A stretch of DNA of 43,106 bases from Escherichia coli. Its GTDB lineage: Bacteria; Pseudomonadota; Gammaproteobacteria; Enterobacterales; Enterobacteriaceae. The notes below the pieces were generated by a model. The model was not told where the DNA came from. It saw nothing but the letters and a program-made list of their open reading frames with translations, and searched no databases. This document shows positions 34,782 through 35,337 of the stretch, piece by piece (the stretch's first letter is position 1; each line of letters begins with the position of its first letter). The position numbers and the translations under genes are program-made. Location of the stretch: assembly GCF_003334255.1 (NCBI RefSeq), contig NZ_QOWU01000049.1; one strand, written 5' to 3'.

Positions 34782-35337
34782 GACAGTCTTAGTCTTTAAG
34801 TTGAGAAGGATGGGAGAAACTTGCTTTCTGGGCGCACTGCCGGAAAGCGAATCCGGTATTACGAAAGTGGTGGTGCCTCGCTCTAAGGATAGGTGACATC
34901 GAAAAAGCGTGCAGAGGAATGTGTGCTTGTGTCTCAGCCCAACGTGAGTGCCTGTTTTTGAGTCGTTGAGTTCTACAGTCCAAAGTGCTGAAACCATTCA
35001 AGAGTCAATTGGCGCGCATTATACGCTGAAATTAATCCAAAAGGAAAACAAAAACAGCGTTTCAAAAAATATACAACTTGTTAGACAATAAATTGTTATC
35101 AAAGATTTAACGTTCCAGGGAAAAGGTTACGCAAAAACTTCACTGTTTGCGCAACGTCTGGTGCCGAAGTTGTCAGTGTGAGGATAAGTGAAAGTTCATC
35201 CGGTGTATAAATATATCATCGCTCAATTGCTACAGTTAAAATAATTTATCGCGTTATTTGTCTGATTTTGCTTGATTTTTGTTTAATTGGTTAGATTGAT
35301 ATATGCTGATAGTTGGCATGATAAATAGGTATAAAGA

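Follow-up and report, generated by a model that had tools for sequence, protein, structure and literature searches.

The pykF-fumD intergenic region

The sequence analyzed here is a stretch of 43,106 nucleotides from Escherichia coli contig NZ_QOWU01000049.1 (assembly GCF_003334255.1), referred to below as the window, and the element in question is the spacer between the divergent genes pykF and fumD. This spacer occupies exactly 34782–35337 (556 bp). An original prediction, made from the DNA sequence alone, had described the interval as the divergent control region of the two genes, and this is borne out by the list of open reading frames (ORFs) and by the RefSeq boundaries. The source of the contig is E. 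coli; the spacer was matched in all 5,426 complete E. coli genomes and differs from that of K-12 MG1655 at a single base, position 35271. The coding sequences (CDS) and the principal features of the locus are as follows, where TSS denotes a transcription start site.

33369–34781, minus strand: pykF CDS, pyruvate kinase I (ORF list and RefSeq), with the true start ATG at 34781–34779
34789–34983, minus strand: ynhH (K-12 b4817), 64 codons with a TTG start (RefSeq; UniProt YNHH_ECOLI)
34987–35002, unstranded: Cra (FruR) operator GCTGAAACCATTCAAG, from consensus match, weight matrix score and conservation
35012–35046, minus strand: distal promoter pykFp, with TSS near 35012, −10 element TATAAT at 35018–35023 and a weak −35 element TTCCTT at 35041–35046
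35047–35067, core 35051–35063, unstranded: putative KdgR-type box, TTTTGAAACGCTGTTTTTGTT in the pykF sense, from dyad conservation and consensus match
35338–35547, plus strand: fumD (ydhZ) CDS (ORF list and RefSeq)

On the K-12 chromosome, the operator 16-mer corresponds to 1,755,477–1,755,492, the distal TSS to approximately 1,755,467, the KdgR-like box to 1,755,412–1,755,432 and the ynhH TTG to 1,755,496. For comparison, a set of 80 pykF loci was assembled with one genome per species across the Enterobacterales. The PykF amino terminus, MKKTKIVCT(I/L)GP, begins at the annotated ATG in all 80. The spacer had also been described as an AT-rich region of roughly 550 bp. This holds for the spacer as a whole, which has a GC content of 39.4% versus 49.6% for the window, but not for the pykF leader (34782–35012), where the GC content is 48%; strong AT-richness is confined to 35013–35337 (33%). 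Taken jointly, the best explanation of the spacer combines a Cra operator, a putative KdgR-type box and an upstream open reading frame (uORF) in the pykF leader. With this combination the spacer is probably the regulatory region already known for E. coli pykF, and the fumD promoter occupies the AT-rich end away from pykF.

The Cra operator and the distal pykF promoter

That pykF is repressed by Cra was part of the original prediction and agrees with the literature. The pykF operator was reportedly described by Bledig, Ramseier and Saier in 1996, and it is listed in RegulonDB. The Cra consensus has been published as gcTGAAtCGaTTCAgc (PMC5888115) and as GCTGAANCGNTTCA (PMC8085971). At 34987–35002, GCTGAAACCATTCA(AG) matches 11 of the 12 specified bases of GCTGAANCGNTTCA(GC) with one mismatch, and only two sites in the 43-kb window, this one included, come within one mismatch of GCTGAANCGNTTCA. 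A position weight matrix (PWM) was also applied, which is heuristic in that it was built from the published consensus gcTGAAtCGaTTCAgc and not from a collection of sites in the literature. It scores 34987–35002 at 14.8 bits, rank 2 of 43,091 window positions, and as a positive control the known-type ppsA site GCTTGAACGATTCACC at 3265–3280 ranks fourth. The top match to the Cra consensus, GCTGAACAGTTTCAGA at 40149–40164 (one mismatch, 14.9 bits), is placed 18 nt inside an ORF at 40131–40916 in the ydhX/ydhU junction region, outside any promoter.

The operator is conserved well beyond E. coli. The sequence yTTGAATGGTTTCAGC is kept in 78 of the 80 loci at 213–281 nt upstream of the pykF ATG, and its part TGAAtGGTTTCAGC hardly varies while the flanks do, as expected of a discrete conserved footprint. 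In 79 loci, the distal −10 element TATAAT keeps a constant distance to the operator, always 17–18 nt. Only a Plesiomonas metagenome-assembled genome (L062) and Rosenbergiella (L066) are without the conserved pykF operator. In the Plesiomonas locus, a Cra palindrome that is close to perfect, ACTGAATCGATTCAGA, occurs 674 nt upstream of pykF and possibly belongs to a neighboring gene.

The distal promoter was positioned from its published sequence. As quoted in PMC2759082, the promoter pykFP, attributed there to Bledig et al. 1996, has the sequence TGTTTTCCTTTTGGATTAATTTCAGCGTATAATGCGCGC and a TSS at −231; the same source states that the Cra recognition site is 197 nt upstream of the pykF ATG. 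Mapping TGTTTTCCTTTTGGATTAATTTCAGCGTATAATGCGCGC onto the window places TATAAT at 35018–35023 and the TSS near 35012. The operator at 34987–35002 is thus located at +11 to +26 of the distal promoter and −206 to −221 from the pykF ATG, a placement downstream of the TSS that is compatible with repression. Compared to the known pykF Cra operator, the site has the same gene, the same organism and a near-consensus palindrome of 14–16 bp at or downstream of the TSS. Nothing material differs except the gap of 9–24 nt from the quoted 197 nt.

The original prediction had placed a Cra half-site elsewhere, at the motif cagcgTTTCAaaa. The motif is present, at 35055–35067 and so one nucleotide off the 35056–35068 first given, and is −274 to −286 from the pykF ATG, far from the literature position. 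The full site at 34987–35002 is 55 bp off the motif and nearer the literature position. A mapped Cra site lying elsewhere, or the lack of a motif above threshold in a PWM scan, had been named in advance as grounds for rejecting the half-site, and on the first of these grounds that call is wrong. There is little doubt from the sequence that the Cra operator is 34987–35002 and not the motif.

Three points weigh against this assignment of operator and promoter. The quoted 197 nt is 9–24 nt off the 16-mer found here. The promoter pykFp is called "predicted" in PMC2759082 and was undetected by rapid amplification of 5' cDNA ends (5'RACE) in glucose-grown cells. Finally, pykF is unmentioned in the main text of the paper that mapped Cra by chromatin immunoprecipitation with exonuclease digestion (PMC5888115).

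Repression of pykF by Cra and the approximate position of the site are taken from the literature. Since the operator is located downstream of the TSS, we infer a roadblock mode of repression by blocking clearance or elongation. The distal σ70 promoter (TSS near 35012) would be repressed by Cra bound at GCTGAAACCATTCAAG just past the start site, and clearance or elongation would be blocked until Cra is released by fructose-1-phosphate or fructose-1,6-bisphosphate.

A probable KdgR-type box upstream of the distal promoter

The motif cagcgTTTCAaaa is enclosed by a longer element at 35047–35067, positioned at −35 to −55 of the distal promoter. The sequence TGAAAC occurs 61–65 nt upstream of the Cra operator in 35 of 39 Enterobacteriaceae-type loci (the window and L002–L039), and in approximately 36 Enterobacteriaceae loci it is conserved as one arm of a dyad, TGAAAC-RnY-GTTTY. 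The conserved unit may be written tttTGAAAC-R-n-Y-GTTT(T/C)(T/C). Most of its information content is in the inverted arms; the 3-nt spacer carries little, with only R-n-Y kept.

This architecture resembles the KdgR box, for which the consensus AAATGAAACAnTGTTTCATTT consists of inverted GAAAC and GTTTC repeats with a 3-nt gap and A/T arms (PMC5559549). Identity to the consensus is 13/20 in E. coli, 12–16/20 in other Enterobacteriaceae and 16/20 in Klebsiella oxytoca. The degenerate core RAAAYRNYRTTTY has two exact matches in the window versus 0.42 expected: AAAACAGCGTTTC at 35051–35063, and AAAACAGCATTTC at 3149–3161 in the ppsR-ppsA spacer. According to Rodionov et al. 2004, as cited in PMC6127512, the genes pykF, ppsA and ydiA (= ppsR) are KdgR-regulated in Dickeya dadantii. 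The published Dickeya boxes are comparable in that a 5-3-5 inverted repeat, GAAAC-N3-GTTTC, is flanked by A/T-rich arms and precedes the same two genes, pykF and ppsA, as given in PMC6127512 and PMC5559549; they differ in that E. coli has a degenerate right arm, GTTTTT, and outer arms rich in T on either side.

In the window, the ppsR-ppsA spacer (3035–3366) contains a Cra-type site at 3265–3280 and a KdgR-type site at 3145–3165, the core of which, AAAACAGCATTTC, is nearly identical to that of pykF. The two genes accordingly share the same pair of motif types.

The TGAAAC element is absent from loci outside the Enterobacteriaceae, where the Cra operator persists. A KdgR-like box is found instead between the −10 element and the Cra operator in Dickeya, Pectobacterium, Brenneria, Yersinia, Hafnia and Erwinia, as exemplified by ATACGGAACGTCGTTTCAATT, which has 14–15/20 identity to the consensus and overlaps the TSS. 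This box and its variants were seen approximately 20 nt upstream of the operator in loci L053, L055, L060, L065, L067, L068, L073, L077 and L080. It looks like a turnover of KdgR-like boxes within one promoter, between a position near −45 in the Enterobacteriaceae and one overlapping the TSS in other families. In terms of position, the box at −35 to −55 in E. coli contrasts with the TSS-overlapping boxes of the Pectobacteriaceae, Yersiniaceae, Erwiniaceae and Hafniaceae.

Several observations count against a KdgR assignment. A full-length identity of 13/20 over the 21-mer is also attained by approximately ten other positions in the window, and the E. coli right arm is degenerate, with GTTTTT instead of GTTTCA. 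The degenerate core RAAAYRNYRTTTY was set in part independently of the quoted consensus and was checked against it afterwards. A literature search yielded no E. coli data on KdgR binding to, or regulation of, pykF.

Two other explanations of the element may be weighed against a KdgR-type box. In the first, the motif would be the Cra half-site of the original prediction, or an auxiliary Cra operator contributing to pykF repression. One half of the Cra consensus, CGTTTCA / TGAAACG, is present in it without mismatch, and Enterobacteriaceae keep the motif at a constant distance from the main operator; asymmetry, with a single good half, is also frequent among known Cra sites. However, the half-site CGNTTCA occurs in the window at chance frequency (29 observed versus 29.45 expected), and the best PWM site overlapping the motif reaches only 1.9 bits, ranking near 333 of 43,091. 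The base following TGAAAC is G or A about equally often, so the CG at the center of the Cra consensus is unconserved, and the dyad fails the Cra spacing test because the partner arm GTTTY is 3 bp farther from TGAAAC than a dimer of the LacI family permits. The element is also absent outside the Enterobacteriaceae despite the persisting true operator, and a position near −45 is typical of Cra activation and not of repression. A contribution of the motif to Cra repression is thus very improbable.

In the second explanation, the dyad would be a part of the promoter architecture, such as a T/A tract resembling an UP element together with the −35 region, or the site of a regulator other than KdgR. 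The dyad is located at −35 to −55 within T-runs, where UP elements and contacts of the RNA polymerase α-subunit C-terminal domain are found, and the full-length KdgR identity of 13/20 is unexceptional in the window. Published work has also demonstrated PdhR binding to a fumD/pykF probe and an effect of PdhR on pykF mRNA (Anzai et al. 2020, PMC7660256). On the other hand, the information resides in two inverted pentamers separated by a free spacer, a pattern characteristic of dimeric regulators and not of A/T tracts. The only other occurrence of the core in the window is in the ppsR-ppsA spacer, and the predicted PdhR box is elsewhere, inside the pykF CDS. This explanation is somewhat unlikely on balance, and the assignment of 35047–35067 as a KdgR-type box is modestly favored by the motif evidence.

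If KdgR recognizes the box in E. coli, as the motif suggests, this dyad of an IclR-family regulator responsive to 2-keto-3-deoxygluconate would link the expression of both pykF and ppsA with the catabolism of hexuronates, a link already published for Dickeya.

The uORF of the pykF leader

The gene ynhH spans the whole pykF leader in a frame other than that of pykF. Its TTG start, at +30 of the distal transcript, is 4 nt after the Cra operator, and its stop codon TAA (34789–34791) is 7 nt before the pykF ATG. An equivalent leader ORF of 60–85 codons was found in 71 of 79 species, beginning 2–8 nt past the operator and ending 5–15 nt before the pykF ATG or overlapping the pykF start. The position of the start codon is kept and its type varies (TTG in 56 species, GTG in nine and ATG in six). 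The frame of the ORF relative to pykF differs among taxa.

With one representative per genus, 32 of 35 leaders are open from the conserved start to within 20 nt of the ATG, versus 5.4 expected from shuffles of the leaders that preserve dinucleotides. For the 16 genera outside the Enterobacteriaceae, in which the variable leader segments are unalignable with those of that family, 13 are open and approximately two are expected from the same shuffles. Stop codons average 0.24 in the uORF frame versus 3.0 per frame in the other two. The genera were treated as independent samples although they are related, and the nominal significance of the uORF is therefore overstated. Maintenance of the uORF is frame-specific, and from these comparisons the uORF is likely to be a selected, translated feature.

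The evidence is not uniformly in favor of a coding function. The codon-position entropy of ynhH is 0.58/0.58/0.70 (permutation p = 0.087), which presents no clear periodicity. No Shine-Dalgarno (SD) sequence can be recognized for the uORF, a search of NCBIfam with YnhH returned no model, and a literature search found no paper discussing ynhH, leaving the experiment behind its annotation untraced. The sequence of the peptide is unconserved among the leader ORFs and resembles translated non-coding sequence.

The stop-free character of the leader invites two other explanations. In the ORF list, the pykF frame is extended by 72 codons (ORF 33369–34997, 542 aa versus 470 aa for PykF), which the original prediction correctly traced to a stop-free stretch upstream of the ATG. 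A genuine amino-terminal extension of PykF, with a start as many as 72 codons upstream, would be consistent with the absence of stops from 34782–34997 in this frame both here and in E. albertii. The stretch is, however, stop-free only within Escherichia (E. coli and E. albertii); nearly every other genus has 1–7 stops in the pykF frame, the uORF is not in a constant frame with respect to pykF among taxa, every locus has the conserved MKKTKIVC starting at the annotated ATG, and the RefSeq protein has 470 aa. The chance of such an extension is practically negligible. A better case can be made that the open frame follows passively from composition, or from conserved blocks of DNA or RNA, and that translation of ynhH is without regulatory consequence. 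A G-poor composition lowers the frequency of stops, and in a test of stop-free runs for each leader, single sequences were insignificant (p ~0.2), such that the start-anchored test over many genera alone was significant. The lack of codon periodicity and peptide conservation, and the relatedness of the genera, point the same way. Against this, the shuffles preserve dinucleotides and still fall far below the observed 32 of 35 genera, the excess extends to the genera outside the Enterobacteriaceae, depletion of stops is specific to one frame, and the position of the start is conserved across TTG, ATG and GTG. A passive origin is unlikely, if far less so than an extended PykF.

Cytosine exceeds guanine in all 79 leaders (29% C versus 16.5% G), and the E. 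coli leader folds worse than its own shuffles (z = +1.47). The C-rich, weakly folded leader, the SD-poor pykF start and the stop codon next to the pykF ATG, combined with an unconserved peptide, suggest that the act of translating the uORF may matter and not its product. Such features are circumstantial, and a regulatory role of this translation is hypothetical; it might shield the leader from Rho, couple initiation of pykF to termination of the uORF, or do both. In the proposed mechanism, the distal transcript would carry a 230-nt C-rich, weakly folded leader filled by ynhH. Ribosomes starting 2–8 nt past the Cra operator would cover an unstructured leader of 200 nt that resembles a Rho utilization (rut) site, excluding Rho, and termination of the uORF at or over the SD-poor pykF start would lead to coupled initiation of pykF. 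Transcripts from the internal σS-type promoter described below would be shorter, would not carry the uORF start and so would bypass uORF control. On this proposal, which is put forward tentatively, the leader ORF, conserved in position from Escherichia to Xenorhabdus, would not be a usual protein gene and would make pykF expression from the Cra-controlled distal promoter dependent on translation.

Comparable systems, on which the proposal is modeled, include mdtU-mdtJI, speFL and tnaC (PMC7815308), where Rho or translational coupling is involved and a small ORF conserved across genera, known from annotation or profiling only, is located in a long, C-rich and poorly structured 5' untranslated region (UTR). 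The ynhH-type ORF differs in occupying its leader from end to end, up to the start codon downstream. Whereas TnaC and the C-terminus of MdtU are conserved, the peptide of this ORF is not, and a function for ynhH is hypothetical.

Promoter, hairpin and initiation block within the leader

Three further features were identified inside the leader.

34884–34892, minus strand: −10 element CTATCCTTA of the proximal promoter (σS/σ70 type), from promoter sequences of PMC2759082 mapped here
34823–34848, minus strand: leader hairpin CTTTCCGG...CCAGAAAG inside ynhH, −42 to −67 from the ATG, from covariation
34782–34808, minus strand: SD-poor pykF initiation block ATCCtTCtCAACTTaaAGAcTAAGACTGTC-ATG, from the order-wide alignment, containing the ynhH stop codon TAA

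Starts of pykF transcripts at −97 and −80 have been determined by 5'RACE and depend on σS and σ70 in vitro (PMC2759082); alternative pykF TSSs were also reported from differential RNA sequencing of Salmonella (PMC3293720). By sequence matching, the two 5'RACE starts are placed near 34879 and 34862, and a further 5' end near 34816. In the alignment, the block GTCACCTATCCTTAG, which contains CTATCCTTA, is conserved across the order.

Covariation in the hairpin was tested on a structure specified by hand, within the Enterobacteriaceae only. Over 28 sequences, 76% of the cells are paired versus 65% in shuffles, and there are 30 double changes versus 12.8; none of 500 shuffles reaches either value, and slid controls are much lower. 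At the equivalent position of the leader, other families have hairpins that differ in sequence. RNAalifold found no consensus structure in a MAFFT alignment of 20 diverse leaders because the variable hairpin is misaligned. The 5'RACE end designated −34 (near 34816) is 7 nt 3' of the base of the hairpin, a position that hints at processing and not at a promoter.

The pykF start has no recognizable SD sequence, though PykF is abundant. The block ATCC(A/T)TC(A/T)CAACTT..AGA at the start is conserved from Escherichia to Xenorhabdus and overlaps the pairing site of the small RNA AdiZ of Salmonella. AdiZ pairs near −22 of pykF, and chimeras with ArcZ were recovered in the same 5' UTR (bioRxiv 10.1101/2025.06.06.658255). 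A search of Rfam at a permissive threshold over 34500–35700 returned zero matches, and a terminator scan found none.

Significance for pykF regulation

Already described or annotated are Cra repression of pykF with its operator, the presence of several pykF promoters, the regulation of pykF and ppsA by KdgR in Dickeya, and the gene ynhH. Three modest points may be new: the leader ORF keeps its position throughout the order, the hairpin covaries, and the KdgR-like box has an alternative placement. Repression of pykF by Cra is textbook knowledge, and in this respect the analysis chiefly relocates the operator and withdraws a mistaken Cra assignment. The motif of the original prediction and its counterpart at ppsA point to possible KdgR-type control in E. 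coli of both genes for the interconversion of phosphoenolpyruvate and pyruvate, a control so far documented for Dickeya only. Among Cra reporter promoters, the pykF leader is one of those used most in systems biology. If the uORF or the hairpin act post-transcriptionally, fusions made with and without the leader to report Cra activity or glycolytic flux would not be equivalent.

The fumD-proximal half of the spacer

The remainder of the spacer may be described in terms of the following features.

35068–35337, unstranded: AT-rich, poorly conserved fumD-proximal half, from composition (32% GC over 35060–35337)
35258–35287, plus strand: predicted fumD (ydhZ) promoter TTGTCT-18-TTTAAT, from the listing of Shimada 2014
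35210–35239, minus strand: predicted promoter toward pykF TTAACT-18-TATATT, from Shimada 2014 and the sole match of the promoter scan

Shimada et al. 2014 associate the spacer with H-NS and list exactly these two predicted promoters (PMC3946193). The gene fumD is the divergent neighbor of pykF in only some genera.

Two regulator sites were considered for the spacer and rejected. The PdhR box AgcTGGTcagACCttTa, assigned to the fumD/pykF spacer in PMC7660256, maps to 34508–34524, approximately 260 bp inside the pykF CDS. A Fur box on the fumD side was suggested by GATAAT repeats in Klebsiella and Enterobacter loci; in E. coli, there is no match with six or fewer mismatches in the spacer. The search recovered its sufA control at 26028–26052, with three mismatches to GATAATGATAATCATTATC at the expected position of the sufA promoter and as the only good match in the window. 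The repeats themselves, seen in L007 (Klebsiella oxytoca) and L010 (Enterobacter sp. 10-1), are tandem GATAAT hexamers, TTGATAATGATAAT, that resemble a Fur box and precede fumD by approximately 20–60 bp.

Two other sequences were observed. An inverted repeat, GACAATAAATTGTTATC (ACAAT-TT-ATTGT), is located at 35084–35100, approximately 75–90 bp upstream of the distal TSS, and a block beginning TTGATAACA is common to several Citrobacter, Enterobacter and Phytobacter loci.

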